The notes under the pieces were generated by a model that saw nothing but the letters and a program-made list of their open reading frames with translations, did no database searches and was not told the origin of the DNA. Shown in pieces: positions 9,729-56,305 of a DNA stretch of 64,000 bases. Position 1 is the stretch's first letter. Each line of letters starts with the position of its first letter. The translations under genes were made by a program, and so were the position numbers. Source of the DNA: Candidatus Multivoradales bacterium (GTDB taxonomy: Bacteria > Acidobacteriota > Thermoanaerobaculia > Multivoradales > J023); the NCBI GenBank assembly GCA_965250305.1, contig CBDFNS010000023.1, positions 105,346-169,345 of the forward strand. Direction: 5' to 3'.

Positions 9729-10025
9729 ATGTCAAAAGTAACATTACGAATCACACCGAACAGACGTCATCGTTCCGGTAGCGCGGAAGTCCACGAGGCG
9801 CCGGCGGCGATTAGCTTCAATGAGCCAGTTCGGATCCGTCTCGAGGTGCCGGCATCGGCCGTCGAGCCTGTGCGCGACGAGAATGGTGATTTGGTCTACC
9901 GATTTGACGTCGTGCTCGACATGACAGGTGCCTCTGGCAATCCCCTGGATGGGGAGATGACGATCACGGACAAGACGGGTACTCACGCTGACTCCGATGA
10001 TCAGGCCGGACCCAGTGGGCCCTAG
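9729..10025 (+). CDS. small hypothetical protein (about 98 aa) immediately upstream of, and overlapping, the CHAT gene
   Basis: ATG at 9729 preceded by AAGGAG with a 6-nt spacer; no family recognised; lower-GC segment. Confidence 0.5.
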   Translation: MSKVTLRITPNRRHRSGSAEVHEAPAAISFNEPVRIRLEVPASAVEPVRDENGDLVYRFDVVLDMTGASGNPLDGEMTITDKTGTHADSDDQAGPSGP

Positions 10026-12834
10026 GAGTCTTTGGCTTGCAGTCACCTCGATGGTGATGATTGGCATCAGCGGCGCTGTCGCCGATGCCTCTCTTGATTC
10101 CGATGGACTGTCACGATGCTGGGCTCAGGCTGATCATCCGCCGGGAACACGCCGGTTCGCTTCGTGTGTATACGACGTGGCCGCCGCTCGAGGGGCCGGG
10201 AGTCTTGAGTTAATGGGGATGGTACTCGAGAAAACGGGTGCCGACCCATGGTTGATATATCACCGTGCCTTCTTAAGAAGGGATCTCGAATCAAGGAAAG
10301 CGGCGATCGAAGAATTCGAGGTGGCGGCGAATCTGTTCCATTTTCGGAGTGATATGGTGGGTGAGGCCTGGGCTCGATGGGCCCAAGCTTCAGACCTTCG
10401 TTTTATGGGGGCGATAGAGGAATCGAAGACTCAGGTCGGTTTAGCCCGGCAGCTAGCTCAAGCGTCGGGAAGTAGGCGCGCACTTGCTGTAGTTCTGATG
10501 GAGGTGGGTCGACAAGCGATCCGATCCGGAGAGAACCTCCAAGGAGCCTACCGTGATCTCCTCGTTGTGGAGAATGAGACCGTCGACGATGTGGCAATTT
10601 GCAGTGTTCGCTGTAAGGAGACGATCGCTGCTCTTTCATATCAGCTAAGTCATTTAGAGAACAGCCTCGAGAGGTTTCGGGGAGTAGTCAACCAAGCTCG
10701 AGAAGAAGGTACTTCTAACTACGCGCACGCGCGGCTCATGTTCGCAGCCGTTCAGTGTGAATACGACGATCTTGTGAGCCAAGACCCTGAACCTGCTCGG
10801 GTTCGGGCAGTTGAAGAATTTAGGGCCGCACTTCGAGCCGCAAAGGATCATGGTTCTGTTTTCCTACAGTCAAGAAGTCATCAGCTTCTGGGTAGGGTGC
10901 TTGGTGACGATACTGAGGCCGTACTTCACTTTGAGGAGTGCGTCAATCTCGGGCCCGGCTCAGACCGGCGATCGCTGGTTGACTGTCTCAACGGGCTTGC
11001 TATTGATGCTCTTCCTAAGGACCGGAGTCTAGCGTTCGAGATGCGGGAGGCGGCGCTGGCGATCTCCAAAGAGGAGGACGATCCCTGGTTCGATGCGTTT
11101 CTCTGGCATCACGTCATGAAATTCGATTGGCTCGCACTGTCACGTGACAAAGCCATCGCACACTCGCTTCGATCTCTTGAGATCATGGAGTGGCTGAGGG
11201 TACTTCAGCCATCTATCGAAGGGCGCGCGGCAATGTTCTCGGGCTGGACCGATCCGTATCGATCGCTCGTGGGTCGATTGCTCTCGCCCAAATTCGGAAG
11301 GCGTCGTGACGACGATGTGGATTTGGCCTTCAGCGTGGTTGAACGATTGCGTGCACGCGTTCTATTGGATGTATTGACCTCCGCGCAGGCGATGCCAGCG
11401 CCACTTGGCGATGGCGATCCGTTGGAGACGGCTCGGCGCGAGGTGCTGGGTGAAATTGTCGACCTCCAACGCACTCTGTTCGAGACCGGCCTCGATGCCG
11501 ACACACGGGAGGCGCGCCGGGCCGAGCTCGAGCGACTCGAGGCCGAGGCGGCACGCTTGTCTGAGAAGATTGCGAAGGCCCACCCCGATCTCATTGCTCT
11601 CGAACGCCCCGACTTTGCCGGCCTCGACGCGGTGCGTGCGGCGCTGGGCCCCGACGAAGCCTTGCTGTCGTTCCAGATGGCTCGCGACCATGGTCTTTAT
11701 AGCGACTTCCTGGGCGGTTCGTGGCTGATGGTGGTGACCCGCGATGCCGTCGAGGTGGTGGCGTTGCCCGATGGGCGCCAATTGCGGCCGCTGGTGGCGC
11801 TTCATGCCGTGCAACTGGCGGACCGGCGCGAGGACGATCTCGGTTTGGCCCGTGACCTCCATACCCACTTGTTGGATGATGGCTTGGCGCGGCTGCCGTC
11901 GGGCATCGAGCGTTTGATTGTGGTGCCAGACGGGCCCCTGCATTTGTTGCCGTTCTCCTTACTCGCCGACGCGGCGGACGCGCCCCTGGCCAGCCGATAC
12001 CAGATCTCGGTGGTGCCGTCGGCTTCGCTGTGGCTGCGCTGGCGGCAGGCAACACAGCTGCCACGGGCCGAAGGCGCCTTGATCATGGCCGACCCCGAGA
12101 CCCTGGCAACGGCGGACCGACCTGGTGCGGACAATGGTCATCTCCGCAAGACGCCGAGCGAGCCGCCCCTGCCGCCCTTGGCGGGGGCCGAGAAGGAAGG
12201 CCGGGCGGTGGCCCGGTATCTGGGCGCGCCGAGCCGGTTGTTGGTGGGCGCGGCGGCCAGCGAGCGCGCGATCAAGCAGACCGCATTCGGCGAGGTGGGG
12301 CTGTTGCATTTTGCCGCGCACGCCATTGTGGACGAAGAAGAGCCCGACCGCTCGGCGATCATGCTCGCACCCGGTAGCGACGACGAAGACGGCTTGTTGC
12401 AGATGCGTGAGATTGTCGAGCTCGACCTCGACAATCTGGTCGTCGTTCTGTCGGCCTGCAGCAGTGCGGTTGGCCCAGTCTTGCGGGGAGAAGGCGTGAT
12501 GAGCCTGGCGCGTGGATTCTTCCAGGCGGGTGCTCGCGCGGTGGTCGGCAGTCTCTGGCCGCTCGAAGACAAGGAGGCCGCCGCCTTGTTCGATACCTTC
12601 TACCGTCGGCTGGCACGTGGCGATAGTCTCGACGGCGCCTTGCGGATTGCCCAGGAAGAGCGTCGCGGGGCGGGCGCCTCGACCGTGGACTGGGCTGGCG
12701 TCCAAGTGTTTGGTGACGGTGGCTTCGTGCCGTTTCCTGGTGGTCGCACACGAACGACTCCGTCCGCGCTTTTGGCGCTCGGTGCCGTGTTGGTGGTGGC
12801 GCTGTTGATTGTGATGGCGCGGCGCCGGGGCTAG
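9997..12834 (+). CDS. exported TPR-like + CHAT (caspase-like) domain protein with a C-terminal hydrophobic/Arg-rich tail
   Basis: Signal-peptide-like N-terminus (LWLAVTSMVMIGISGAVADA); helical repeat middle; CHAT core with His (GLLHFAAHA) and Cys (VVVLSACSSAVG) dyad; C-terminus VPFPGG...ALLALGAVLVVALLIVMARRRG; alternative start near 10051. Confidence 0.85.
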   Translation: MIRPDPVGPRSLWLAVTSMVMIGISGAVADASLDSDGLSRCWAQADHPPGTRRFASCVYDVAAARGAGSLELMGMVLEKTGADPWLIYHRAFLRRDLESRKAAIEEFEVAANLFHFRSDMVGEAWARWAQASDLRFMGAIEESKTQVGLARQLAQASGSRRALAVVLMEVGRQAIRSGENLQGAYRDLLVVENETVDDVAICSVRCKETIAALSYQLSHLENSLERFRGVVNQAREEGTSNYAHARLMFAAVQCEYDDLVSQDPEPARVRAVEEFRAALRAAKDHGSVFLQSRSHQLLGRVLGDDTEAVLHFEECVNLGPGSDRRSLVDCLNGLAIDALPKDRSLAFEMREAALAISKEEDDPWFDAFLWHHVMKFDWLALSRDKAIAHSLRSLEIMEWLRVLQPSIEGRAAMFSGWTDPYRSLVGRLLSPKFGRRRDDDVDLAFSVVERLRARVLLDVLTSAQAMPAPLGDGDPLETARREVLGEIVDLQRTLFETGLDADTREARRAELERLEAEAARLSEKIAKAHPDLIALERPDFAGLDAVRAALGPDEALLSFQMARDHGLYSDFLGGSWLMVVTRDAVEVVALPDGRQLRPLVALHAVQLADRREDDLGLARDLHTHLLDDGLARLPSGIERLIVVPDGPLHLLPFSLLADAADAPLASRYQISVVPSASLWLRWRQATQLPRAEGALIMADPETLATADRPGADNGHLRKTPSEPPLPPLAGAEKEGRAVARYLGAPSRLLVGAAASERAIKQTAFGEVGLLHFAAHAIVDEEEPDRSAIMLAPGSDDEDGLLQMREIVELDLDNLVVVLSACSSAVGPVLRGEGVMSLARGFFQAGARAVVGSLWPLEDKEAAALFDTFYRRLARGDSLDGALRIAQEERRGAGASTVDWAGVQVFGDGGFVPFPGGRTRTTPSALLALGAVLVVALLIVMARRRG

Positions 12835-17384: not shown

Positions 17385-18146
17385 TCAGTGACCGCGCTTG
17401 TTGGACGTTCGCTTGCGCCGCCTGGATTCGGGAGCGCGACGACCCCATGCGTAGACAACGAGGGTCACAGCAAGCAGCGCGGCAATGCCGGTGAACGCGC
17501 GACGGTAAATACTTCGTCGTTGAAGTTGGCCGTCGCAGGCTTCCAGTTGGCGGTCATATAAGGCGGCACGGGCGGCGACCTTTTCGGCGACCTTCAGCAG
17601 CCAAGGCTTGGCGAGATGACTTCCGCGAGCATAGCCGGCGGGCCCTTCGTGATAGGCCAAGTAGAGGTTGTAGGCATCGCTGGTTTCGATCCCCGCCCGT
17701 TGGTGAATTTCCCGTCCATACCAGCCGACAAAATCGGAGACGTCCGGAAAGTGGCGTCGGCTCGCGCGCGGGCCCGCGACACGCCGTTGATAGTCTCGCC
17801 AGGTGCCATCGAGTGCTTGGGCATAGCCATAGGCTGACGAGGGCCGGCGCCAAGGAATCACGCCCCACAGCATCCTGCGTGGTGGTCGCGCTCCCGCTCT
17901 AAAGCTCGACTCTTGGAAGAGGATCGCAAGCTGGACCGCTACTGGGACCTTCCATCGTTTCTCAGACCGCCTCACGCTGCGGTACCAACCCGACTTGTCC
18001 ATCAGGAGGGTGCAGACATCGCCGGATACGCTCGGTGGCGCCTCATGCCAACGAAGGAGCGCGACACCGAAGAGAAGCAGAAAGCCCGTGGCGAGAATCG
18101 GTCCGAGGAATCGAGGGAACCGAGGGAACCGAGGTTGGCGGACCAT
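17385..18146 (-). CDS. membrane-anchored SLT-domain (lytic transglycosylase-like) protein
   Basis: TM anchor after a PRFPRFPRF repeat; catalytic-Glu region LAILFQESSFR and AYGYAQALDGTW resemble SLT family motifs; ATG overlaps the stop of the upstream gene (TGATG). Confidence 0.5.
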   Translation of the reverse strand: MVRQPRFPRFPRFLGPILATGFLLLFGVALLRWHEAPPSVSGDVCTLLMDKSGWYRSVRRSEKRWKVPVAVQLAILFQESSFRAGARPPRRMLWGVIPWRRPSSAYGYAQALDGTWRDYQRRVAGPRASRRHFPDVSDFVGWYGREIHQRAGIETSDAYNLYLAYHEGPAGYARGSHLAKPWLLKVAEKVAARAALYDRQLEACDGQLQRRSIYRRAFTGIAALLAVTLVVYAWGRRAPESRRRKRTSNKRGH

Positions 18147-20068
18147 CACGGAGACGTCGGATTCCGCTCCACCATCAGCAAGCGATCGACCGCCTCGACC
18201 TCGACCGCCTGGTTGGTGCCGTCGGGCCAAGTGACCTCGAGTCCTGTGACGGTGGCGGCCTTGCCCAGGCCAAAGGTCACGGTAGGCTCGGATTGGCTCT
18301 GGTAGCTACGGTTGGGCATGACGGCCCGGCGCTGGCGACGGCCGTCGTCGGTCTCGAGGGTGATCCAGGCGCCGATGGCGTCGATGTTGGGGGCTCGATC
18401 GACCAGGCGGATTCGCAGCCAGTGGTTGGCGAGGGCTTGGTCATTGCGCAACACCAGGGCACGGCGACCAGTTTGGGTCAGGACGACGTCGAGGTCGCCG
18501 TCGCCGTCCAAGTCGGCGGTGGCACTACCGCGTCCCACTACGGCCTGGCCGAGGTCACCGGCGGTGGTCAGATCGACCGGCTCAAACGTTCGGCGGGCTT
18601 CGGGGCCGGCGTTCCAGAACAGCTGTGACGGCTGGGCGTACGTCTGGCTCGGATCGACGGTGTTGATTTCTGTTTCCAGGTGACCATTGGTTTGGATCAG
18701 GTCGAGGCGGCCGTCGAGGTCGTAGTCGAAGAACAGCACACCAAACGACAGGACTGCGCGACTCGATGCGCCAATGCCTTCGGTAATCGCCTCGTCGGCG
18801 TAGAGGGTTCGGTCACCCTGTGCGACGTAGAGGGAGGTCATTTCGTTGGCGAAATTGCCGATCGCGAATCCGAGGTCACCATCGTTGCGCAGGTAGCCCG
18901 CATCGATGCCCATGGCACCGGTGGCCTCACCCTCCCGGCCGTAGGCGATGCCCCATAGTTCGCCCACTTCGTCGAAGGTGATGGCGTTGCCGTTGGTGGT
19001 GGCGGTACGGTTGTGGAACAGGAAGTTCCGAACCGTATCGTTGGCCACGACCAGATCCATCCAGCCGTCGCCATCGACGTCGATGGGTGCGACCGCCAGC
19101 GCCTTGCCGACCGGGACTCCGGAAGCGTTGTTGCGTACGTGCAGCCCGGCTGCTTCTGAGATGTCGGTAAACGCGGGGTTGCCACCCGGAGCATCGAGGT
19201 CGTTGCGATAGAGCGCGCTGAATGAGCCTTGGTAGTTGGCGGGCGGTCCGTAGGCTCGGCCAACGCCGGTCAGTTGGTAGTCGATCTCGAAGTCGATCGC
19301 GCGCGACCAACGGACGTAGTTGCCAACAAAGAGATCGAGGTCGCCGTCGTTGTCGGCATCGAAGAAGGCGCACGAGGTGCTCCAGGCATCGTCGGAGCCT
19401 GCGACACCCGCGGTATCGCTAACATCTTCGAACCGGCCGTGTCGGTTCATCAACAACCGGTTGCTGCCAACCGCGGCGACGAAAACGTCGCGCCAGCCAT
19501 CACCGTCGACATCGGCCGCGGCAACGCCTGTTCCGTAGATCCCAAGGGCCAAGCCGGCTTCGATCGTGGCATCGGTGAATTGCAGGTTGCCCGCGGCGTC
19601 CGTGCCTTGGTTGCGGAAAAAACGGCTGGAGATGTTCTCCGCTCCGGCTGTTGCCGTCCAAGGACGACCGTTGATCAGCAGGATGTCGATGTCGCCGTCG
19701 TTGTCGGCGTCGAATAGGGCGACGCCGCTGCCCATACTTTCGGGCAGCAGCTTGTCGCCGCCTGCCCCGTTCTCGTGTGTGAAGTCGATCCCGGCCGCGG
19801 CACTGATCTCGGTGAAGGTTACGGTGGGTACCGTGGCCTCGGTGGCGGGAACGACGGCCACTGGCGCGGCAGTCTTGATCGTTTGTTCGGGCGTTGCCTC
19901 ATCTGGGCGCCGCATGACCGCAACCACCACCAATACGACCACGGCCAGCGCGACCAGCGCCATCAAAGACCGGCGAACGGCAACGCCGATAACGGCGTCG
20001 TCAGCGTGTGCGAGGTCATCCGAGTGCGCCGGGTTCGACTGGGTTTCTGCTTCCGGTGGGTGGTTCAT
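18146..20068 (-). CDS. CRTAC1-family protein (FG-GAP/VCBS repeats + ASPIC-UnbV C-terminal domain), membrane anchored
   Basis: Repeated FDADNDGDxDL motifs; C-terminal ..LGLGKAATVTGLEVTWPDGT.. UnbV/ASPIC signature; N-terminal TM; start ATG 20068 overlaps the stop of the TPR gene (ATGA). Confidence 0.8.
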   Translation of the reverse strand: MNHPPEAETQSNPAHSDDLAHADDAVIGVAVRRSLMALVALAVVVLVVVAVMRRPDEATPEQTIKTAAPVAVVPATEATVPTVTFTEISAAAGIDFTHENGAGGDKLLPESMGSGVALFDADNDGDIDILLINGRPWTATAGAENISSRFFRNQGTDAAGNLQFTDATIEAGLALGIYGTGVAAADVDGDGWRDVFVAAVGSNRLLMNRHGRFEDVSDTAGVAGSDDAWSTSCAFFDADNDGDLDLFVGNYVRWSRAIDFEIDYQLTGVGRAYGPPANYQGSFSALYRNDLDAPGGNPAFTDISEAAGLHVRNNASGVPVGKALAVAPIDVDGDGWMDLVVANDTVRNFLFHNRTATTNGNAITFDEVGELWGIAYGREGEATGAMGIDAGYLRNDGDLGFAIGNFANEMTSLYVAQGDRTLYADEAITEGIGASSRAVLSFGVLFFDYDLDGRLDLIQTNGHLETEINTVDPSQTYAQPSQLFWNAGPEARRTFEPVDLTTAGDLGQAVVGRGSATADLDGDGDLDVVLTQTGRRALVLRNDQALANHWLRIRLVDRAPNIDAIGAWITLETDDGRRQRRAVMPNRSYQSQSEPTVTFGLGKAATVTGLEVTWPDGTNQAVEVEAVDRLLMVERNPTSP

Positions 20069-21108
20069 GAGCCCGTGCCCGCGTCGCGGCTGCGCATGTT
20101 GCGGGCTGCTTCGGCGGTCTTCAGACGTTCCTGGATCGAACGGAAGAGTGCCTGGCTGCGTCGATGCCACTCGTCGGCCGTGAAGCGATCTGCTGGGGCA
20201 CTGAGTGCCACGACCCCCGAACCGCTGGCTTGGTTCGAGACCTTGACGCGCAAATCACCCCAAATCAAGGCCCAACTCTCGGTGGCTTCGATCGTAGGAT
20301 CGAAGGCCATCTTCTGATCACGAAGCGCGTCGGTCACGGCGTCGATCAGTTGGCGGTCGCCAGTGGCATAGCGGACGGGAAATGCCGCTTGGACCTGATG
20401 CGCACCGGTTGGCGGTTGGTAGGTATCTGTGGTCATGAGTTGTAGGAAGGCATCGAGGTGGAAGAAGCTGAATTTGGCATCGCCCCGAACGCGAAGGCGC
20501 AGGCGCTCGTCGGCGGCGAAGGCTTGTTCCAGGTAGCGGATCATCGGGTCGATGGCGCCGATCAACGCGTAGTTCGAGGCCACCTGGAGGGCTGACTCGC
20601 CGCGACCGGGGTTGAGTGCCAGATAGCGTGAAAAGTGAGCCTCGGCCTCGTCGCGGCGTTGGAGAAACAACAGGACCGCACCCAGATTCAGCTCGTTGTC
20701 GGGGGCGGCTGGGTCGAGTTTCTTGGCCTCGCTCAGGGCTTGATAGGCCGCGTCATAGCGTTCGAATGCCATCTCGGCAGCCGCCAGGTTGAGCCAGCCT
20801 TGGCGCAGGGAAGGGTCCAGCTTCAGGGCTTCGCGCAGGTCGATGACACCAATCTCATGATCGCCGACCATGAAACGCGCCGTGCTGCGCAAGAACAAGG
20901 CGCGGGCGTTCGGCTTCCCTCGCCGCAGGGCGTTGTCGAGCTTCGCCAGGGCCTGCTCCGGGGCGCCACGGTCGAGGAGTTGCTGCGCCTCGTCGAGAAT
21001 GCGTTCGGCCACGGACGCGAGCGATCCCGTTGCCAAAAGGAAGCCCGTCAGCACGATGCCGACGGGTAGGAAAAGACGTTTGGTTTGAGAACGATCGTTG
21101 CGCTTCAT
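20065..21108 (-). CDS. secreted TPR-repeat protein
   Basis: Signal peptide (LFLPVGIVLTGFLLATGSLASVA) and several 34-aa TPR-like repeats (..ALFLRSTARFMVGDHEIGVIDLREALKLDP..). Confidence 0.7.
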   Translation of the reverse strand: MKRNDRSQTKRLFLPVGIVLTGFLLATGSLASVAERILDEAQQLLDRGAPEQALAKLDNALRRGKPNARALFLRSTARFMVGDHEIGVIDLREALKLDPSLRQGWLNLAAAEMAFERYDAAYQALSEAKKLDPAAPDNELNLGAVLLFLQRRDEAEAHFSRYLALNPGRGESALQVASNYALIGAIDPMIRYLEQAFAADERLRLRVRGDAKFSFFHLDAFLQLMTTDTYQPPTGAHQVQAAFPVRYATGDRQLIDAVTDALRDQKMAFDPTIEATESWALIWGDLRVKVSNQASGSGVVALSAPADRFTADEWHRRSQALFRSIQERLKTAEAARNMRSRDAGTGS

Positions 21109-21238: not shown

Positions 21239-24200
21239 CTACCGCGATGTGCCTACGTCCCCCGTTTCGTCGAGGATTGCCAGGCGTTTGCGGGCCAGCT
21301 CGAAGGTCGATACCGCTGCGTAGGGATCATCGTCCGGTTCGTCGATTCTCCGGTAGTAGGCGCGGGCGGTTTCCAGTAGGCCGTAGGTTTCCGCCGTGCG
21401 GCCGAAGACGAACCAGTCGTCGGAAGTGACCTGCTTGTCGGGCCGTAGTGAGATGGCCTGTTGGACAATTCGATTGGCTTCTACGGGGCGATCCATCTGG
21501 GCGTAGGCGGTTGCCAGGGTATGCAGGGTGGCGTCGCTTTGGTAGCCCTCGAGTCCAGCGCCTTTTTGGGCGAGCGTCAAGGCCTGCTCGGGGTCGGTGT
21601 CTTCGAAAAGAAGGAACCAGGCCCACTGGTTGTAGTCGACGGCTTCCCGGTCGCCCGTGGGAATGGCCTTGAAGGCCGCAATGGCATCGGCGAAGGCGCC
21701 ACGTGATTGGGCGAGAAGTGCCTCGCTACGGGCCGTCGCTGGGTCGTTCGGCAGACGTTTCTTTCGCTGCTCGATCAGTGTCTCAGCGGCGCTCCAGCGC
21801 TCGGCTTGCAACAGTGAGAGCAGTTGGCCCTGGAACACCGTTTCGGAGGTTGGATGGGCTTTCAGCATCGTCGATGCGACAGCTTCGAGCGCTTTGCTGT
21901 CGTCGCTGATGAGGGTGGCCTGCAAGATCGCCAACTGGAGCGCTTCCTGGCGGTTGGTGTCGTCCGTGATCTTGGTCAGCGCCGGTTTCAGGATGGCCAA
22001 CGCCGCTTCGGCGTGGGCGGCGTCGGTCATCAGCGTCGCTGCAGCAACCCGCATATCGTCAGCGGACGCCTCGTCCGTGGTCGGCCACAGTCGGGCGAAG
22101 GGATGGAATCCGAACGGGTCCTCGGTCTGGATTCGGGTGATCGCTTGCTCGGCCCAATCGAGCCATGTGGCGGCCGCGGCGAACTCGCCCGTGTCGATCA
22201 GTCGGATGGCCTCGGTGCCGAGACCTGCCAAGAGTCGATCACCGGCGACCATTTTGGGCTCCCCGTTTCGCATGCCGAAGAACGTGGTCCAGGGCTCGGC
22301 TGATGGGTCGAGCGCTGGTGTCATCTGAATGCGGTACCCGGTCTCGTCGTCACCGTCGATCTCATCGGTGGTGAACGACTGCACACCGATGTCGAAGAAA
22401 ACAGGGTCAGGCAATGCGCCGGGATTGATCGCCGGATCGCCGCGTAGCGTTTCGAGCGCGATTTGTAAGCCGACCTCGGTAGCGTCCCAGGCCGTTGCCA
22501 AGCTCTCGGCAACCAAAGGCCGTGAACGCTCGAGATCGATTGGGTGCCCCATGAGTGAGCCCAGCAAGCTTCGGGCGGTAGACTTCGGGTCGGTGAGATC
22601 GACCTCGAGCTCCTCCGAGCGCTTGACGTTGCCGATGACATCGGCTTGGGCGAAGGTCGCAGCCGGATTTTCGGTGCGACTCGCGGCTCGCCGCAGCACC
22701 TCGCCGGATTGCGGGTAGTGACGCGTGATCAAGAGGTGTTGAGCGACTTGCTGGAGCAGCGCGGGTTGGGCTGCTTGGTTGGCCGACATTTGCTCAACCG
22801 CGCGCAGGGCCGCGGGTACACCGTCTTGCACCGCGATCGCGGTTGCGCGCACGATATTGCGTGTGTCGCTGCTCGGAAACGTCTGGTGTGCATCGGCCAG
22901 CTCAGCCCAGTGGTGGTCGTAGAAGAGTGCGGCCAGGAGTTGAGTGTCGTAGGAAGTGTCTTCACTCTCTTTGCGCAGTCGGCGGTAGATTTCGATCGCA
23001 TCACTGAGATCGGCATCAGCCCCGTATCGTGTGCCGGTACTGTCGTGCTCGAAGGCAACGGCCAGCTCCGTTGCGGCTTCTTCATCGTCCGGTGCGAACT
23101 CGGTGGCTTTTGTCAGGCTGGCGATGGCTGCCTCGCGTTGATAACCCGGACCGAATCGGCGTCCGATGTCGTCGTGTTCGAGGGTGTAGCCGTGAAGCAT
23201 GTGGGCGAACATCGATTCGGGCGCCAGTTCCACTGCTCGTGCGGTTTCCGATTGCGCCAGCTCGCCAAAGCCGGCGGCGAGAAGAACCTGGGCGTAGCGG
23301 ACCCGATGGTCGGGCTGCTCGGGTTCAGCATCGATGAGTTTGCGTGCGCCGCTGATCGCATTTTCGATGCGGCCGGCGGCGAGATCCGCCATGATGGTGT
23401 GATCGAACCAAATGGATGGCAACTCGGCCTGGCCGATCTCATGGAGTCCGCTGCGAAAGGCGGTGATCGCCGCCGCATTGAGTCGCCGGGGTCCGGTATC
23501 GAACACCATTTCGACGTGAACCACACCGTCGTCGTCGGCAAAATAGGCCATGGTGAACGAGCCGGTGCCCAATTCCCATGCCCGGTCGGCTGGCAGGTCC
23601 CGCGGCGTCATGCCGCTGGCGGGCCGGATCGTATAGCGGAGCACGGATCGGTAGGGGTCGTACAGCACCAGGTCCGACTCGCGAGGGTCGATTTCTTCGC
23701 CAAGGTCATCGATCAGAGCGCTTGGAAGATCTTCGAACAAGGTGCCAAATCCGAGTACCACGATGGCCTCGCGAAGGTCGCTCACCACCGAGCCGACGCC
23801 CTCGCCCGCCATCCGTAACGTGAAGGGCTGGTCGAGATCGTCGGGCGGCGACCATTCGACGTCGGTGAGCTCAGCGTCGCTGTAGGTGGTGGCGATGTAG
23901 CTGGCCAAGCCCTCGCGGGTAGATTCCGGCGTCCAGTCACTGGTGACCGTCCGCATGCTCTGTTCCGACGATCCGCGATAGACCGTGGTTTCGATCACGG
24001 AGCCATCGCCGTAACTCGTCAATTGGATCTCGCGATGTTCGATAGTGCCGTTGGCGCTCGACGGGGCAACCGGGGTCCGCTCCAACTCGGTGGCGTTCGT
24101 GTGCACGACCAGGGCGTACCGATCCTGATCGGGAAGGGGTAGCTCACCTGCACGCGCGCCAGGGTGAGTTGGGTCGACCCATACGGGTGATGACCCCATG

Positions 24201-25399
24201 ATCTTGACGATCGCGTGATCGAATCGGCCCAAACCCGGCAAGGTTGGGTCGACGTCGACTCCCGGCCCGGTTAGCAGCAAGGCAACGTTTGCTTCGATGC
24301 CCAAGGCGCGCAACATGGCGACCAACAGCGTTGCCTTGTCCTTGCAGTCGCCGTAACTGCGCTCGAGGGTGGTCGAGGGGGCCGCGGGAATGAGACCGAA
24401 AGCGCCGAGCTCGAGACCGGTGTAGCGCACTTGATCATGAAGGTACGCGAGAACACGCGCGATGGTGTCGGCGGTCGATTCGTCTCGACGCTCGAACCCT
24501 TCGAGAAGCTGCGCCGATTCCGCGTCTGCGAGTAGTTGTTCCACAACCTCATGGTAGGCGCGGGCAACGGAGCCCCAGCTCTCCCCGGTGGCGAACCCTA
24601 CGTGTACCCAGCGAGGCTCGTCCGACGGCCGCCCTTCTTCCCACGGGATCTCATCGGTCATCGAGGGGTGGTCCACGTCGAACACCCACACCACCCGGTC
24701 GTCGTGTTCTTCCTTGGTTGGCGCGAGGTCTTCGGTGCCCCGAACCTCGAAGCGAAAGGGGACGCTTTGCGGGACATCAATCGTCAGTCGTTGGCGTAGT
24801 ACCGGCGAGGTTGACTCGATGTTGATGCGCGAGGACAGTCCTGCGTTGAAGTACGGCTTTTCGTCGTGGACGATTTCTTCAGCCACCACCACGGCACCTT
24901 TGACGACACCAGGGAGCGGGCCCTCGAGAACGAGCTCATCCTCGAAGATGGCGTCTCCTTGGTCACCGTTTGGACGCTCACTCAGGGTCTTGGGATCGAG
25001 TCGATACTCTTTGCCCGCAGGGGTCACAATGCGGTAGCGCAGCTCTGGTCGGCTCTGCATCCAGGGCCGGTAAATTCGGTTGGCTACGCTCCAGTCTTCA
25101 ACCCCTTGTGCAGTGTGAAGGTAAATGACGGCGCGGAACAGGCTCGTCTTGCGGCCGGGCTCGTGGAAGGTCTGGATGTACTCACGCCAAAGATAGACGG
25201 CGTCGGCGTCTTCGACATCGGGGGCAGCCTCGGCGGCAGCGGCCAGCAATGTTGTGGAGTCGACGGCGAAAAGGTCGATGTCCGGCCACGGGACGGTCGG
25301 CTTGTCGGCACCTGTGGAATCACCAGCGGCGACCTGAGGGATCCAGATCAGACCGAGTGCCAGGAGACGAAAAAGAAGAGAAAAATAGTGATGCGTCAA
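21239..25399 (-). CDS. large (1386 aa) DUF3857 / transglutaminase-like cysteine-protease-fold / DUF3858 protein with C-terminal TPR repeats, secreted
   Basis: Transglutaminase-like core SYGDCKDKATLLVAMLRALGIEA; signal peptide THHYFSLLFRLLALGLIWIPQVAAG; start assigned to TTG 25399 because a perfect AGGAGA sits 5 nt upstream (tctcct at 25405-25410); the ATG at 25480 lacks an RBS. Confidence 0.8.
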   Translation of the reverse strand: MTHHYFSLLFRLLALGLIWIPQVAAGDSTGADKPTVPWPDIDLFAVDSTTLLAAAAEAAPDVEDADAVYLWREYIQTFHEPGRKTSLFRAVIYLHTAQGVEDWSVANRIYRPWMQSRPELRYRIVTPAGKEYRLDPKTLSERPNGDQGDAIFEDELVLEGPLPGVVKGAVVVAEEIVHDEKPYFNAGLSSRINIESTSPVLRQRLTIDVPQSVPFRFEVRGTEDLAPTKEEHDDRVVWVFDVDHPSMTDEIPWEEGRPSDEPRWVHVGFATGESWGSVARAYHEVVEQLLADAESAQLLEGFERRDESTADTIARVLAYLHDQVRYTGLELGAFGLIPAAPSTTLERSYGDCKDKATLLVAMLRALGIEANVALLLTGPGVDVDPTLPGLGRFDHAIVKIMGSSPVWVDPTHPGARAGELPLPDQDRYALVVHTNATELERTPVAPSSANGTIEHREIQLTSYGDGSVIETTVYRGSSEQSMRTVTSDWTPESTREGLASYIATTYSDAELTDVEWSPPDDLDQPFTLRMAGEGVGSVVSDLREAIVVLGFGTLFEDLPSALIDDLGEEIDPRESDLVLYDPYRSVLRYTIRPASGMTPRDLPADRAWELGTGSFTMAYFADDDGVVHVEMVFDTGPRRLNAAAITAFRSGLHEIGQAELPSIWFDHTIMADLAAGRIENAISGARKLIDAEPEQPDHRVRYAQVLLAAGFGELAQSETARAVELAPESMFAHMLHGYTLEHDDIGRRFGPGYQREAAIASLTKATEFAPDDEEAATELAVAFEHDSTGTRYGADADLSDAIEIYRRLRKESEDTSYDTQLLAALFYDHHWAELADAHQTFPSSDTRNIVRATAIAVQDGVPAALRAVEQMSANQAAQPALLQQVAQHLLITRHYPQSGEVLRRAASRTENPAATFAQADVIGNVKRSEELEVDLTDPKSTARSLLGSLMGHPIDLERSRPLVAESLATAWDATEVGLQIALETLRGDPAINPGALPDPVFFDIGVQSFTTDEIDGDDETGYRIQMTPALDPSAEPWTTFFGMRNGEPKMVAGDRLLAGLGTEAIRLIDTGEFAAAATWLDWAEQAITRIQTEDPFGFHPFARLWPTTDEASADDMRVAAATLMTDAAHAEAALAILKPALTKITDDTNRQEALQLAILQATLISDDSKALEAVASTMLKAHPTSETVFQGQLLSLLQAERWSAAETLIEQRKKRLPNDPATARSEALLAQSRGAFADAIAAFKAIPTGDREAVDYNQWAWFLLFEDTDPEQALTLAQKGAGLEGYQSDATLHTLATAYAQMDRPVEANRIVQQAISLRPDKQVTSDDWFVFGRTAETYGLLETARAYYRRIDEPDDDPYAAVSTFELARKRLAILDETGDVGTSR

Positions 25400-25545
25400 A
25401 ATGATCTCCTGAGGATTTCGGGAAGAGAAAATCGCCTCGATTATGGTGGAATAGCGTGCTTCTGTCACGATCGGGCGCATAGAGGGTCACGAATCAGGTT
25501 GGCAAAGAGCGTCGCGTTCGGGTCTTCTCGATACTCACCGGTACA

Positions 25546-26643
25546 ATGTCCCGTGTGACGACACCAAGCCCAACACCGACACCGAAGCAAGTCGCCGCCG
25601 AGCTGGGCAACCGGGTTATTGGACAGGAAGAGGCGATCACTGAGATGGCCATCGCCTTGGCCAAGAAACTGGCGGGCCTGACCGTCGGGAATGTTCTGAT
25701 GATTGGCTCGTCCGGCACCGGCAAGACGACCTTGATGCGAGCCGTCGAAGGCTATCTTGGAGAGCATCCGGAGTTGCCGCTGCGGCCGGTCGTGGTGCGG
25801 ATTCACGCCAACGTGTTGGGCGAGGAGGCCGAGCGTGGCCGGCCTGGCGAAGTGGTCTTTGGGCGGTTACTGGATCGTGCTCGGGAACAGCTGGGTGCCC
25901 ATGTCGACCTGGCGACGCTTCTCGACCATGCTGCCAAGGGCATCGTCTTCGTCGACGAGGTCGACAAGATCCGATCTCACGTGGGTGGTCAGGTCAACAC
26001 GGCGGGCATTCGCGCTCAGGAAGCCCTATTGACGGTGATCGAGAACGAGGCCGTACCCTTGACGCTGCCGCCGTGGGCGGGGGGAGAGACCGTGACGGTG
26101 GACTCGAGTGGCTTGCTCTTCGTTTGCGGAGGTGCGTTCGAAGGGCTCTACGACGCCGTCTTCGACCGCGTGACCGTGGGACGCGACCGTGGCGCGCTCA
26201 AACCGGTTACGGTGGTCGAGGGTGGGCGGGTCCAAGAACGACTGGAGTTCCGGCTCGGTGACTGGCTGCGCAACGAAGATCTTTTTGACTACGGCATGAG
26301 TCCTCAGTTCTTGGCTCGCTACGACGCCGTGGTGCTTCTACACGATCTTGCCGTTGACCACTTGGTCAGGATTTTTTTGGAAATACCGGATTCCAGCTTT
26401 CACCAGGCACGTGCGTACTTCGAGAGCCGCGGGACCCGATTGGCGCTTTCGCCTGGTGCGGTGCGACGGATCGCACTCGAAGCCTCGCGGGCTCCACGGC
26501 TCGGCGCGCGCGCCCTAAAGGAGGTCTTTCGAAGGGTCATACGCCCCTACGAGTTCGCGCCCGAAGACCACATGAGCGATACAGGGGCCGTGATGATCGA
26601 TGTTGCGGAGGTCGAAACGGCACTCGGCGCCACGGCCTCCTAA
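25546..26643 (+). CDS. ClpX/HslU-family AAA+ ATPase lacking the N-terminal zinc-binding domain and GYVG pore loop
   Basis: Walker A GSSGTGKTT; Walker B GIVFVDEVDKI; ClpX-like blocks QEALLTVIEN, LLFVCGGAFEGL, sensor-2 region ARALKEV; the GYVG pore loop position reads HANVLGEEAERGRPGEV. Confidence 0.75.
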   Translation: MSRVTTPSPTPTPKQVAAELGNRVIGQEEAITEMAIALAKKLAGLTVGNVLMIGSSGTGKTTLMRAVEGYLGEHPELPLRPVVVRIHANVLGEEAERGRPGEVVFGRLLDRAREQLGAHVDLATLLDHAAKGIVFVDEVDKIRSHVGGQVNTAGIRAQEALLTVIENEAVPLTLPPWAGGETVTVDSSGLLFVCGGAFEGLYDAVFDRVTVGRDRGALKPVTVVEGGRVQERLEFRLGDWLRNEDLFDYGMSPQFLARYDAVVLLHDLAVDHLVRIFLEIPDSSFHQARAYFESRGTRLALSPGAVRRIALEASRAPRLGARALKEVFRRVIRPYEFAPEDHMSDTGAVMIDVAEVETALGATAS

Positions 26644-26671
26644 CATGCGGCAAGCATAAAACCTCGTTGGT

Positions 26672-27544
26672 TTGATGAAATCCCCTCTTCTCCGGCTGTT
26701 GAAACGTTGTCCGCCCCTTTTCAGGCTCTGCAAGTGGTTGCTGTGGGAACGGCACAAACTAAGCGATTGGGCGAGCACGCATCTATTCAAGCGAACGCGT
26801 CGTGTGTCGACCCCGCTCGGCTTCGACATGGTGTCGGGAAGGTTTATCGCCAACCGGATGATGTTGGATGGCACTTTCGAGCCCGAAGAGGTTCGGATCA
26901 TCACGGAGACCTTGCCGGATATTGATGTCTTCGTCGATATTGGGGCGAATATTGGTTATTACGTCTGCATGGCACGTGCGCGCGGCAAGCACGTGGTTGC
27001 GTTTGAGCCTCAACCACAGAATTACAGTCACCTGCTGCAGAATCTCGCCATCAACGGCTGGGCCGACGTTGAAGTGTTTCCATGTGGTCTCGGTGCCGGT
27101 ATCGACGTTGTCGAGTTGTACGGATCGTCGGGCCCTTCAGCGTCGCTGATCAAGGGTTGGGCCGGATACGCATCGGGGTACCGGCAACTGATCCCGGTGA
27201 ATCGCCTCGATAACGTACTGGGCGGACGATTCACGAACAAGCGCTTGTTCATCAAGATCGACGTCGAAGGTTTCGAGTACTTCGTTGTACAGGGTGGGCT
27301 CGAAATCGTGCGGCGCAACCCAAAGCCCGTCTGGCTCATCGAAATATGCTTGAACGAGTTCCACCCTTCGGGGATGAACCCACACTACAAGGACACCTTC
27401 GATCTGTTCTGGCACAACGGCTACCAGATCTTCGCATCCGACGGGGCGGGCACCGAAGTCACACCGGAGATGGTTGACCGTTGGGTCGACGACAATCTCT
27501 GCGATCTCGGCGTGTTCAACTATCTGATCAAGCCTGTAGCATAG
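26672..27544 (+). CDS. FkbM-family SAM-dependent methyltransferase
   Basis: FkbM signature VDIGANIGYY ... IKIDVEGFE; moderately lower GC than neighbours. Confidence 0.75.
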   Translation: MMKSPLLRLLKRCPPLFRLCKWLLWERHKLSDWASTHLFKRTRRVSTPLGFDMVSGRFIANRMMLDGTFEPEEVRIITETLPDIDVFVDIGANIGYYVCMARARGKHVVAFEPQPQNYSHLLQNLAINGWADVEVFPCGLGAGIDVVELYGSSGPSASLIKGWAGYASGYRQLIPVNRLDNVLGGRFTNKRLFIKIDVEGFEYFVVQGGLEIVRRNPKPVWLIEICLNEFHPSGMNPHYKDTFDLFWHNGYQIFASDGAGTEVTPEMVDRWVDDNLCDLGVFNYLIKPVA

Positions 27545-49973: not shown

Positions 49974-52310
49974 CTAGCGCAACGCCAGCTCAACCACTTC
50001 GTCCATATGCTCGACCGGACGGAAGGTGAGCCTGCGTCGCAAGCCGGAAGGGAGCTCAGGGAGATCACGCTCGTTGCGGCTGGGGATAATGACGGTGGTG
50101 ATACCCGCGGTCAGCGCAGCGAGGGCTTTCTCCTTCAGGCCGCCAATGGGCAACACCGCTCCGCGGAGGGTGATCTCGCCGGTCATGGCAAGGGTGTGAT
50201 TGATGGGGCGATCGGTTACCGCGGAGAGCACAGCGGTCGCGATGGTGATGCCCGCCGACGGACCGTCCTTGGGGACGGCCCCGGCCGGGGCATGAATATG
50301 AAAGTCGCGTTCGTTGAAGATGGCGGATTCAAGACCGTTTCGTTCCGCAAAGCCGCGGGCATAGGTCATGGCAGCCTGCGCCGACTCCTGCATGACATCA
50401 CCCAGCTTGCCAGTCAAGCGCAATTTTCCTTTGCCCAAGACGGTCGACACTTCGATTATCATCAACTCGCCGCCATGGGCCGTCCAGGCTAGACCGGTTG
50501 CGACCCCAACGCGATCCTGATCCAGCAGTCCCTCGTCCTCGTGTTGGGCAACCCCGAGTAGTTTGACGACTTGTTTGGGGCCGACGACCCTTCGCTTGGG
50601 TCCCTTTTCGACCACGGTGATGGCCGTCTTACGGCACAGCGCCGCGATCGATCGCTCGAGGTTGCGGAGCCCGCTTTCGCGGGTGTAGCCACGGATAAGG
50701 GTCTTGAGGCCGCGCTCGGTCAGGTGCAGATGCTCGTCCTCGAGGCCGTGTGCGCCGCGCTGTTTGGGAAGCAGATGGCGTCGAGCGATCGCGCGCTTCT
50801 CATCTTCCGTATAGCCACTCAGCCGGAGGACCTCCATGCGATCGAGAAATGCCGGCTGAATCGGATCGAGCTGGTTGGCCGTGGTGATGAAAAGGACCTG
50901 CGAAAGATCGTATGGAAGGCCGAGGTAATGGTCGCGGAAGCTGACGTTCTGTTCTGGGTCGAGCACTTCGAGCAAGGCAGAGGAAGGGTCGCCACGGTAG
51001 TCAGCGCCGATCTTGTCGATCTCGTCGAGCATGAATACTGGGTTGCTCGAGCCGGCTTGGTGAATGCCCTGAATGATCCGTCCGGGCATGGCGCCGACGT
51101 ACGTCCGACGGTGGCCACGAATCTCGGCCTCGTCCCGTACGCCGCCGAGTGAGACGCGCACAAACGCTCGGCCGAGCGCGCGGGCGATCGACCGTCCGAG
51201 TGACGTCTTGCCGACGCCAGGTGGGCCCACGAAACAAAGAATGGGGGCGCGGGCGTCGGACTTGAGCTGGCGCACCGCCAACAGCTCGATCATGCGCTGC
51301 TTGATGTTCTTGAGGCCGTAGTGATCTGCATCGAGCACGGCGCGGGCGCGGGCGAGGTCGAGGTCGTCTTCGCTCAGATTGCCCCAGGGGAGTCCGATCA
51401 GCCAGTCGAGAAACGTACGGATGACCGTCGTCTCGGCGCTGTCCGGGTGGCTGCGCTCGAGGCGTTTGATCTGCTTCTCGAGTTCCTCACAGGCTTCTTC
51501 CGGCAACTTCTTCTCGGTTGCTTTGCGCCGGTACTCTTCGACCTCGGTTTGCAGCTCGTCGCCTTCGCCGAGTTCGTCTTGGATGGTTCGCAGCTGCTGG
51601 CGGAGAAAATACTCGCGCTGCGACCGATCGAGCTCGGTTCGTGCCTGGTTGGCGATGTCCTGTTGAAGACTCAGGACATGCACTTCGCGTTCCAGGTGGT
51701 CGCAAACCGCGGTGAGGCGTGCGATCGGGTCACCCATTTCGAGCAACGTCTGCGCTTCATCGACTTCGAGATCGAGGTTGCTTGCCGCCAGGTCAGCCAG
51801 ACGGCCCGGATCCTCGAGATTGGCGGCGATCACCACCACTTCTGGTGAGATGGTGCGTCCGAGATGGACCGCACGCTCGAGCCGGTCGACAACCGTTCGG
51901 GCAAGTGCCTCGAGCTCGTCGGTACTGGGGGGTGTCGGCAGCGTGGGGATCGGTGACACGTTCGCTTCAAGAAAGGGCTCGGTTTGGCCGATATGATCCA
52001 CTCGAATCCGAGTTAGCCCTTGGACCAAGATTCGGGTCCGACCATCGGGAAGCTTGAGCATCCGCATGATGGACGCTGCGATGCCGACTTCGAAGAGATC
52101 CTTGGGCCCCGGGTCGTCAACATCCGGATTACGCTGGCCCACCAGCGCCACCATCCGCTCTTCGGCCAGCGCGTGATCGATGGCAGCGGTTCCGACGTCG
52201 GGTCCCACCGAGAGCGGCGTAATGGCGAACGGAAAGATCACCGCATCGCGTAACGGCAAGACGGGAAGAATGTCGGGGAGGATCAGGTCTTCGAGCGCAG
52301 GATCATTCAT
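49974..52310 (-). CDS. lon: ATP-dependent protease Lon (endopeptidase La)
   Basis: LON N-domain, AAA+ (GPPGVGKTS, Walker B FMLDEIDK), catalytic Ser in PKDGPSAGI; start ATG 52310 (MNDPALEDL...) avoids overlap with nrdR. Confidence 0.9.
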   Translation of the reverse strand: MNDPALEDLILPDILPVLPLRDAVIFPFAITPLSVGPDVGTAAIDHALAEERMVALVGQRNPDVDDPGPKDLFEVGIAASIMRMLKLPDGRTRILVQGLTRIRVDHIGQTEPFLEANVSPIPTLPTPPSTDELEALARTVVDRLERAVHLGRTISPEVVVIAANLEDPGRLADLAASNLDLEVDEAQTLLEMGDPIARLTAVCDHLEREVHVLSLQQDIANQARTELDRSQREYFLRQQLRTIQDELGEGDELQTEVEEYRRKATEKKLPEEACEELEKQIKRLERSHPDSAETTVIRTFLDWLIGLPWGNLSEDDLDLARARAVLDADHYGLKNIKQRMIELLAVRQLKSDARAPILCFVGPPGVGKTSLGRSIARALGRAFVRVSLGGVRDEAEIRGHRRTYVGAMPGRIIQGIHQAGSSNPVFMLDEIDKIGADYRGDPSSALLEVLDPEQNVSFRDHYLGLPYDLSQVLFITTANQLDPIQPAFLDRMEVLRLSGYTEDEKRAIARRHLLPKQRGAHGLEDEHLHLTERGLKTLIRGYTRESGLRNLERSIAALCRKTAITVVEKGPKRRVVGPKQVVKLLGVAQHEDEGLLDQDRVGVATGLAWTAHGGELMIIEVSTVLGKGKLRLTGKLGDVMQESAQAAMTYARGFAERNGLESAIFNERDFHIHAPAGAVPKDGPSAGITIATAVLSAVTDRPINHTLAMTGEITLRGAVLPIGGLKEKALAALTAGITTVIIPSRNERDLPELPSGLRRRLTFRPVEHMDEVVELALR

Positions 52311-52356
52311 CGATCGATTGTCCGTAATCGGCACCAGCACAGGGCCGGCACCGCGC

Positions 52357-52830
52357 TCAAGTGTCGTCGCCCGATTCGGGCTCGGCCAAGAGGCTCTGTA
52401 CTTCTTCGACAAATGCGCCGAGATCTTCGAACCGCCGATACACCGAAGCGAAGCGTACGTAGGCCACCGGGTCGAGCTCGCGCAAGCGGTCCATGATCAG
52501 ATTGCCGATCTCACGGGTTGAGATTTCCCGCTCTTCCTTCTGGTGCAACCGCCGTTCGATGCCGCCCACCAGATCTTCGAGTGTCTTGAGCGGAATGGGT
52601 CGCTTCTCACAGGCCCGAAGAACGCCACCCAGGAGCTTGGCGTGATCGAATTCTTCCCGTCGGCCATTCGCCTTGACTACCATATAGGGGATGCTCTCGA
52701 TCTGCTCGTAGGATGTGAACCTGCGTTTGCAGTCGAGGCATTCTCGTCGCCGACGGATCGTGGCGCCTTCACGGCTTTCACGAGAATCGACGACACGATC
52801 CCGGTTGACCGAACAGAACGGGCATTTCAT
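52357..52830 (-). CDS. nrdR: transcriptional repressor NrdR
   Basis: MKCPFCS...CLDC zinc ribbon + ATP-cone. Confidence 0.9.
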   Translation of the reverse strand: MKCPFCSVNRDRVVDSRESREGATIRRRRECLDCKRRFTSYEQIESIPYMVVKANGRREEFDHAKLLGGVLRACEKRPIPLKTLEDLVGGIERRLHQKEEREISTREIGNLIMDRLRELDPVAYVRFASVYRRFEDLGAFVEEVQSLLAEPESGDDT

Positions 52831-54126: not shown

Positions 54127-54523
54127 CGGTTCCCGCGTGCGCGCCTGGTCGGGGAGGGGTCGGGAAGCATAGCATTGGCTCTTGGGGTGGTCAAGAAATG
54201 GTGTGTGTTTTCCAACGCCACTCGCCCAGCAGGCTGGGCCGCATAACCTCTGGTGTTGTTGGGTTTAGGAGTGGCCGCGCCCAAACGTGGTCCAAGAGCG
54301 GAGATGACCTGGTCGTCGCTTGTGTGTCGGCGTTCGAACGCCCCGAGAAATCGCGTCGCCCGCGCCATCACAACGGGGTAGAATGGGCTCGGCTGGCGAT
54401 TCCCGCCGGCTGCTGCACGGGGTCTGCAGGCGACGGGGGGACGTCACCTGTCGGTGCTCGGGTCGTCAGGGAGCCTGGCACCCTGGGGGCCGTAATGACG
54501 TAGCGTGTCGATCGGAGAGCGAA

Positions 54524-55600: not shown

Positions 55601-55649
55601 CCTTTCGACTGCCTACGGTAGACAATAGAACGTTCGGAGCACGGGACTC

Positions 55650-56276: not shown

Positions 56277-56305
56277 TGTTCGCGCAACTGCCTGAGGCTT
56301 CCTAG

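Follow-up and report, generated by a model that had tools for sequence, protein, structure and literature searches.

The window, a 64,000-nucleotide stretch of contig CBDFNS010000023.1 from a Candidatus Multivoradales bacterium, contains a gene for an AAA+ ATPase with the fold and ancestry of ClpX. The protein belongs to a separate, strongly conserved and previously undescribed clade, which occurs mainly in Thermoanaerobaculia/Acidobacteriota. Its nucleotide site is intact. Four functional elements specific to ClpX have been lost across the whole clade, and the loop that replaces the aromatic pore loop of ClpX is under strong purifying selection. We think it rather likely that the protein is a ClpP-independent, ClpX-derived ring ATPase whose specialised, non-aromatic axial loops act on a specific client.

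A ClpX-type ATPase with an intact nucleotide site

Pfam assigns generic AAA/AAA_2 domains to the 365-residue protein and nothing narrower. Its best NCBIfam match is ClpX PRK05342 (122.8 bits, covering model positions 58-400 of 418), and a sequence search of the PDB retrieves ClpX (E=1.6e-25, residues 8-354). The AlphaFold2 model, computed with a 27-sequence family alignment as input, has a mean predicted local distance difference test score of 91.3 and a predicted template modelling (TM) score of 0.87. When this model was searched against the PDB with Foldseek, all of the top 50 matches were ClpX chains (50/50), with TM scores up to 0.75. Since ClpX ranks first in NCBIfam, in the PDB sequence search and in Foldseek, the fold and ancestry of the protein are of the ClpX type. 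HslU belongs to the same clade of AAA+ proteins and gives a significant match to the small domain, which is weaker than that of ClpX (TIGR00390, 60.7 bits, cut-off 362); unlike HslU, the 365-residue protein has no insertion of the size of the I-domain, and it lacks GYVG.

Residues were counted in an alignment that joins E. coli ClpX to 244 members of the family, to which the family-wide counts given below refer. The catalytic residues of the Walker A and Walker B motifs, the arginine finger and the sensor-2 arginine are invariant throughout this alignment (Table 1). The protein thus shares with canonical ClpX (E. coli; PDB 6WRF/8ET3) the two-subdomain HCLR-clade AAA+ fold (TM 0.75), Walker A/B, the arginine finger, the sensor-2 motif GAR(G/A)L and the EDL..(F/Y)G(L/M).P(E/Q)F block.

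The likeness to a working ClpX is limited to the level of a nucleotide-driven ring. Both equivalog models for ClpX score the protein below their cut-offs (PRK05342, 122.8 versus 359 bits; TIGR00382, 99.4 versus 370.75 bits). Among seven tests of ClpX membership it fails six and passes solely that for an HCLR-clade AAA+ module, and it should therefore not be filed as ClpX. Pfam, NCBIfam and PADLOC hold no model specific to the clade, and our literature search found no paper devoted to it, the sole relevant work being that on ClpX3 of Myxococcus xanthus. Homologues are named "AAA family ATPase" by NCBI, and many of them "ATP-dependent Clp protease ATP-binding subunit ClpX" by JGI. A role as a component of anti-phage defence was considered and rejected, as the PADLOC matches to the P-loop are marginal (best DolB, E=4e-5, about 60 residues) and the genomic context is of the housekeeping kind.

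Loss of the ClpX-specific elements

The segment of the window protein equivalent to GYVG is ANVLGEEAERGRPG. HMMER and MAFFT align GYVG to A95-E96-R97-G98 or one residue off, and the AlphaFold2 model places a short helix (residues 88-96) followed by a loop (residues 97-101) at the pore-1 position. Residues 88-104 are free of F, Y and W, and therefore no realignment can restore an aromatic pore loop. A misalignment was rejected on this basis: HMMER, MAFFT and the 244-sequence alignment are concordant, and no aromatic residue lies within 8 residues on either side. Across the family, the column of ClpX Y153 is occupied by E, R, S, Q, T or A and by an aromatic residue in none of the 244 members. 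Likewise, F, Y and W are absent from the 11-column pore-1 window in all 121 sequences of subfamily A, the type found in the window. In a set of 32 subfamily-A sequences thinned to below 85% identity, conservation reaches 0.91 in the pore-1-equivalent segment compared with a mean of 0.81 for the protein, which argues for function rather than decay.

ClpX's zinc-binding domain at the N-terminus is missing as well. The protein has a single cysteine (C194), and its AAA+ module begins at about residue 13, after some 12 residues, leaving no place for a C4 zinc ribbon. Pfam gives no zf-C4_ClpX match to the protein, and the first 70 residues are devoid of CxxC in all 244 family members. In ClpX this domain handles adaptors and substrates. 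The RKH loop of ClpX stands at the pore entrance; in the equivalent segment of the family, the columns of R228 and K229 are gapped in the window protein and in about half of the family, whereas that of H230 is gapped in 244/244. The IGF loop, which docks ClpX to its protease, is replaced by a predicted β-hairpin. The tripeptide [ILVM]G[FLYWM] occurs nowhere in the window protein, and [ILVM]G[FL] is absent from the IGF region of all 244 family members, where the IGF columns hold gaps or Arg.

The protein is about 28% identical to canonical ClpX, and its pore-2 loop is 4 residues shorter. Three insertions set the clade apart, of which one follows the Walker A helix and the others precede Walker B and EDLF, respectively; the gene lies outside the tig-clpP-clpX operon. 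In contrast to the family, every canonical or ClpX3-type sequence from the same scan has AGY[VYIK]G and an IGF-like motif. A ClpX-like protein of Haloferula luteola (L037:8001-9008; L-numbers denote the related loci drawn for comparison, comprising family loci and outgroup loci with canonical or ClpX3-type ClpX) has the pore-1 sequence AGYKG, with Lys in place of a hydrophobic residue, together with MGF and no CxxC upstream.

A sequence-only reading of this DNA had described a ClpX/HslU-family ATPase of a poorly characterised type, which keeps the Walker A/B and sensor residues, lacks both the C4 zinc ribbon and the GYVG loop, and would not be expected to act as a canonical unfoldase for ClpP. 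The present results agree with this description and place the protein nearer to ClpX than to HslU (122.8 versus 60.7 bits), in a clade that is indeed uncharacterised, with neither a family model nor a paper of its own. The aromatic pore loop overlooked by eye, which that reading had named as a possible refutation, is not found: the Y153 column is non-aromatic in all 244 members, as is the whole pore-1 window in the 121 members of subfamily A. The alignment of the pore and IGF loops with ClpX that it had proposed as a check finds pore-1 and IGF missing and pore-2 shortened. Two losses go beyond the earlier description, those of the RKH loop and the IGF tripeptide; with the zinc domain, GYVG, RKH and IGF all missing and no clpP adjoining, the protein is not expected to be a canonical ClpP unfoldase.

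The clade and its gene neighbourhoods

The first database search with the protein brought up over 1,700 relatives, among which the 120 best are 71-87% identical to it; the named sources among these 120 are Thermoanaerobaculia/Acidobacteriota metagenome-assembled genomes (MAGs). Homologues from many Thermoanaerobaculia MAGs show 72-79% identity, a sign of selection. When the 50%-identity cluster representatives were searched exhaustively, few distant members (37-51% identity) came up, after which the score falls to that of canonical ClpX at about 110 bits. The set of distant members was enlarged by a profile search, and at least 244 sequences of the clade were examined, mostly from Thermoanaerobaculia/Acidobacteriota MAGs. 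A scan of genome contigs for the distribution of the clade gave seven family loci among the matches listed, most of these matches being canonical ClpX.

The family was grouped by its pore-1 segment into subfamilies A and B and a group C. The segment is HANVLGEEAERGRPGE in subfamily A and NANLLVD(S/A)ER(M/L)EFQP in subfamily B, and it is heterogeneous in group C (for example NANVVADxxS/T-rich). In a neighbour-joining tree, unbootstrapped and midpoint-rooted, A, B and C form one clade, to which neither canonical ClpX nor the ClpX3-like sequences without a zinc domain belong. One protein, P0135 (716 residues), combines a family-type AAA+ module with a xylose-isomerase-like TIM barrel at the C-terminus (AP_endonuc_2, 102 bits) and has in addition a Cys-rich N-terminal extension; it may be a real fusion or an artefact of gene calling. 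As a functional clue, the fusion partner of this single case is not interpretable.

The closest described relative in organisation is ClpX3 of M. xanthus (MXAN_2743), an orphan paralogue located away from clpP that has neither N-terminal zinc domain nor RKH motif, is non-essential, shows a heat-stress phenotype and shares 43.5% identity with E. coli ClpX (PMC11423568). The window protein resembles ClpX3 in being a ClpX paralogue without zinc domain or RKH, encoded away from clpP. Orphan ClpX proteins of the ClpX3 type, without zinc-binding domain, are also encoded in the Thermoanaerobaculia MAG SMAG_U3424 (L066:8001-8927) and in a Myxococcota MAG (L035:8001-8954); they share about 45% identity with E. 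coli ClpX, keep GYYG and V/IGF, have no clpP nearby and cluster with canonical ClpX. The window clade, in contrast, has neither motif and branches separately. The former locus means that at least one Thermoanaerobaculia genome has a more ClpX-like gene outside the clade studied here.

The neighbourhoods of the AAA+ gene differ among the subfamilies. In Thermoanaerobaculia, the order folE, GWxTD-domain gene, fabH and AAA+ gene on one strand (L004-L007, L014, L015) is ancestral. The fabH and AAA+ genes are spaced by about 12 bp or overlap, and the 3' side of the AAA+ gene holds a variable slot followed by opposite-strand genes for DedA/VTT, YggX, UDP-glucuronate decarboxylase, UDP-glucose dehydrogenase and Mla proteins. 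A divergent TPR gene, inserted in two loci (L016, L017), separates fabH from the AAA+ gene there. One subfamily-A locus has a 73-residue open reading frame (ORF) without Pfam match between these two genes (L007:7727-7948, + strand).

In subfamily B, an M29 (AmpS/PepS-type) aminopeptidase gene lies directly upstream (L008:6784-8001, L012:6711-7895, L098:4751-5935), with overlapping stop and start codons in L008 and a gap of 65-105 bp in the other two. The whole block is conserved as ADH, M29, AAA+, FHA/sigma-54 activator, S66 peptidase and RecG. L012 is labelled Methylomirabilota and nevertheless shares this synteny with Thermoanaerobaculales, so its bin label may be wrong. In part of group C, the AAA+ gene begins within a small zf-CDGSH gene, sharing 4 nt with it, and is followed by a CarD_C gene, pgpA, ribF and truD. 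These zf-CDGSH genes are of the 2Fe-2S type (L094:7762-8004, L096:7753-8004, L097:4833-5084), and the 4-nt overlap is kept in at least two genomes with unlike upstream contexts, an indication that the two genes form a conserved operon in this subfamily. Elsewhere, the AAA+ gene follows a Zn-ribbon/trypsin-like gene (L010) or an outer-membrane efflux gene (L100) or precedes ftsY (L018), and L019 and L020 show further differing contexts.

No universal neighbour was found across the subfamilies. A tblastn search with E. coli ClpP gave no match in the 64-kb window or within 8 kb on either side of the family loci L001-L020, and the same search does detect clpP next to canonical clpX in L022-L052 and L092. 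The case that would have overturned the sequence-only reading, a gene next to clpP in relatives, is therefore not found within these distances. Among the Pfam-annotated called genes of the family loci there is no hslV; no direct tblastn search for hslV was made. The clade sits in housekeeping neighbourhoods, without a conserved protease or any other conserved partner.

The ancestral neighbours folE, GWxTD and fabH are all missing from the window. On the 5' side, the AAA+ gene is instead divergent from a giant gene for a DUF3857 and transglutaminase-core protein (DUF3857 89.4 bits, Transglut_core 35.5 bits, both above cut-off), whose translation contains the Cys-His-Asp motifs YGDCKD, FDHAIV and VWVDPT. 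The longest ORF of this gene begins at ATG 25480 (21239-25480, - strand), 27 codons beyond TTG 25399. The latter start is preceded by an AGGAG Shine-Dalgarno sequence with a 6-nt spacer, and a promoter-like site (1 site versus 0.6 expected by chance) falls inside the overextended part of the ORF. The gene model starting at TTG, with a 146-bp intergenic region, is therefore the better one, in line with the shared divergent region of this length reported by the sequence-only reading. Translated from TTG, the N-terminus reads THHYFSLLFRLLALGLIWIPQVAAG and resembles a signal peptide, which suggests that the transglutaminase is exported; the ATPase has no such sequence.

The transglutaminase and TPR genes form one variable module. 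DUF3857/transglutaminase accompanies TPR in L001-L002 and in the window, and the 2-kb fragment L003 shows the TPR gene alone. The gene order varies, with TPR adjoining the AAA+ gene in L001 and transglutaminase adjoining it in the window, and the four distinct loci with the TPR gene all belong to one syntenic lineage. The co-occurrence with transglutaminase genes that the sequence-only reading had proposed to look for is found among relatives in L001/L002 only. A functional coupling of transglutaminase and ATPase was rejected as unsupported, given this distribution, the varying gene order and the exported appearance of the transglutaminase.

On the 3' side lies an FkbM-family methyltransferase gene (Methyltransf_21, 68.8 bits, cut-off 22.7; TIGR01444, 81.5 bits, cut-off 37.7). 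Its lower GC content, pointed out earlier, holds for the overall value (0.556 versus 0.621 for the window) and does not extend to third codon positions, where it is similar (0.708 versus about 0.72-0.78). None of the 20 related loci has an FkbM homologue, and in L001, L004 and L005 the same slot holds toxin-antitoxin genes. FkbM is thus a genome-specific insertion, and a coupling with the ATPase was rejected since no related locus has a homologue. The implied link of the ATPase to both neighbours is accordingly not upheld, as TPR/transglutaminase genes occur in some relatives and FkbM solely here. The transglutaminase, TPR and FkbM genes appear to be neighbours by local insertion rather than functional partners.

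Upstream of the TPR/transglutaminase pair, the window has a stretch rich in secreted and accessory genes, which stands where relatives have folE, GWxTD and fabH. It encodes a 945-residue CHAT-domain (caspase-like) protein (9997-12834, +), an FG-GAP/ASPIC-UnbV repeat protein (18146-20170, -) and an SLT_4 transglycosylase (17385-18230, -). Further away are a canonical Lon protease gene with no clpX or clpP adjoining (49974-52412, -), a heat-shock region from hrcA to dnaK (54320-58132, +) and an M32 carboxypeptidase gene (59284-60798, +).

Table 1 Features of the AAA+ gene and its neighbours, in window coordinates
Feature	Position	Strand	Description
AAA+ ATPase gene, ClpX-derived	25546-26643	+	365 residues; large and small AAA+ subdomains alone, without N-terminal domain
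Walker A, G54-SSGTGK-T61	25705-25728	+	K60 and T61 invariant (244/244); K60 = ClpX K125
Pore-1-equivalent segment, A88-NVLGEEAERGRP-G101	25807-25848	+	Charged, without aromatic residue; in place of ClpX ...TEAGYVGED...
Walker B, I133-VFVDEVD-K141	25942-25968	+	D137 and E138 invariant (244/244); = ClpX D184/E185
RKH-loop-equivalent, residues 170-184 (VPLTLPPWAGGETVT)	26053-26097	+	Shortened, without R-K-H; LPPWAGG here, LPxWAGG conserved in the subfamily
IGF-loop-equivalent, residues 210-236	26173-26253	+	Without [ILVM]G[FL]; predicted β-hairpin, strands 220-225 and 228-233
Arginine finger R258	26317-26319	+	= ClpX R307; invariant (244/244)
Sensor-2 arginine R322 in GAR motif	26509-26511	+	= ClpX R370; invariant (244/244)
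Divergent intergenic region	25400-25545	.	146 bp, GC 0.52; from sequence and GC content
Sigma-70-like promoter match, GTGACA-17-CATAAT	25440-25468	-	Toward transglutaminase gene; consensus match, 1 site versus 0.6 expected by chance
Giant DUF3857, transglutaminase-core and C-terminal TPR protein	21239-25399	-	Pfam; probable start TTG 25399
TPR protein	20065-21108	-	347 residues; Pfam; same variable module as transglutaminase; homologues divergent to AAA+ gene in L001-L003, L016, L017
FkbM-family methyltransferase	26672-27544	+	290 residues; 28 bp 3' of AAA+ gene

Proposed role and competing explanations

From its sequence, the protein would descend from the ClpX lineage and no longer be a ClpX. 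It is predicted to be catalytically competent as an ATPase and probably hexameric, ring formation being deduced from the arginine finger, which acts in trans. It would hydrolyse ATP and work as a stand-alone remodeller without ClpP, and its job is probably different from that of ClpX. The charged axial loop (EEAERGRPG), which is subfamily-specific and selectively maintained, may engage a particular client or partner instead of threading polypeptides generically. Enhancer-binding AAA+ proteins contact sigma-54 through their GAFTGA loop, and the client contact proposed here would, by analogy, resemble this type of contact as well as the cofactor insertion performed by ClpP-independent ClpX homologues. 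Yeast Mcx1, the mitochondrial ClpX, activates ALA synthase by cofactor insertion independently of ClpP, and is thus a precedent for a ClpX-type ring that remodels a specific client. Unlike the window clade, Mcx1 keeps aromatic pore loops and threads its client partially. Torsins are HCLR-related AAA+ proteins of the eukaryotic endoplasmic reticulum lumen that lack aromatic pore loops and hence use a non-canonical mechanism; their own arginine finger is missing and is supplied by LAP1/LULL1 (PMC5425593, PMC4999309). The window protein is similar to Torsins in the absence of aromatic pore loops and differs from them in its invariant arginine finger.

Several points weigh against a client-specific remodeller. 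The pore-lining loops of the protein are assigned by homology to ClpX only. We know of no established way in which a AAA+ ring that lacks a hydrophobic residue at pore-1 grips a substrate, so the protein could be regulatory. Moreover, subfamily B has M-E-F in its pore-1 loop; the clade may therefore still thread polypeptides, with subfamily A alone having diverged. The recurrent neighbours with peptidase folds (M29, trypsin-like and transglutaminase-like) could also mean a partnership with a protease.

In its full form, this last possibility makes the AAA+ protein the ATPase part of a new two-part ATP-dependent protease, which feeds or activates an adjoining peptidase (the transglutaminase-fold Cys protease in the window, M29 or the Zn-ribbon/trypsin-like protein elsewhere). 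Genes for peptidase folds directly adjoin the AAA+ gene in three contexts: in L008, L012 and L098 the M29 gene shows translational coupling or a distance of no more than about 100 bp, in L010 a gene 15 bp upstream encodes a Zn-ribbon protein that weakly matches Trypsin_2, and DUF3857/transglutaminase is associated with the AAA+ gene divergently in the window and L001. However, these are three unrelated peptidase families, none of them chambered or ring-forming, and the transglutaminase, unlike the ATPase, starts with a signal-peptide-like sequence that suggests export; an ATP-dependent protease is therefore a minor rival, and we judge it unlikely. In addition, the M29 loci share one synteny block and so amount to a single evolutionary observation, most subfamily-A loci have fabH and not a peptidase gene upstream, and the AAA+ protein has no IGF-like docking motif.

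Equally improbable, in our estimate, is a regulatory "pseudo-unfoldase" paralogue, which would not handle substrates itself and would act on a canonical ClpX-type ATPase or that enzyme's adaptors by co-assembly, capping or titration. Such a role would fit the loss of the grip and ClpP-docking elements alongside retained ring-interface residues (arginine finger and sensor-2), and the Thermoanaerobaculia genome of L066 has at least one other ClpX-type gene (GYYG, VGF). Yet E138, R258 and R322 are fully invariant, which argues for an autonomous ATPase, and the charged loop is itself strongly constrained. Furthermore, 28% identity to ClpX and clade-specific insertions at or near the subunit surface make mixed rings with ClpX unlikely.

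Still less credible is a motor that uses an Arg-rich axial loop (R97-G-R99) to work on a polymer other than protein, for example nucleic acid or an anionic polymer. Basic rather than aromatic residues do occupy the pore-1 position in subfamily A, and basic pore loops are typical of ring ATPases that translocate nucleic acids. The same loop, however, contains four Glu and so is net acidic, and the loop chemistry of the other subfamilies is different (MEF; S/T/Q-rich). The family shows no consistent nucleic-acid-binding domain or neighbours of DNA/RNA metabolism, and to our knowledge there is no precedent for an HCLR-clade motor on a non-protein polymer. Finally, that the protein is simply the ClpX of its organism, as the JGI name on many homologues and the best match in every library might suggest, is refuted by its bit scores (122.8 versus 359 and 99.4 versus 370.75), by the absence of the zinc-binding domain, GYVG, RKH, IGF and an adjoining clpP, and by an NCBI name that reads "AAA family ATPase" only.

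Returning to the client-specific remodeller, its furthest-reaching form is that an undescribed clade of ClpX-derived ring ATPases gave up threading, exchanged the paddle for a conserved charged loop, and uses ATP on one dedicated client; we put this forward tentatively, as a possibility that may well prove wrong. The action on the client would be, for example, the maturation of an enzyme, the loading of a cofactor or metal, or the disassembly of a complex. Weak hints at a metal role come from differing subfamilies and comprise the CDGSH Fe-S proteins, the zinc-ribbon proteins, the M29 metallo-aminopeptidase and the fused xylose-isomerase-like TIM barrel. If true, this would be the first time that a non-threading mechanism is shown for a bacterial member of the HCLR clade of AAA+ proteins.

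The practical impact is limited for now, as the clade comes from MAGs of uncultured Acidobacteriota and related bacteria and no client is predicted. For annotation, the JGI label "ClpX" on hundreds of genes of the clade represents a systematic error. ClpX is the textbook model of how AAA+ proteins grip and thread substrates by aromatic pore loops. A strongly conserved descendant of ClpX that has the ATP site and has shed the aromatic paddle and the adaptor domain, together with the loops for entry and for protease docking, is a natural experiment on the capabilities of a ClpX ring deprived of these parts.

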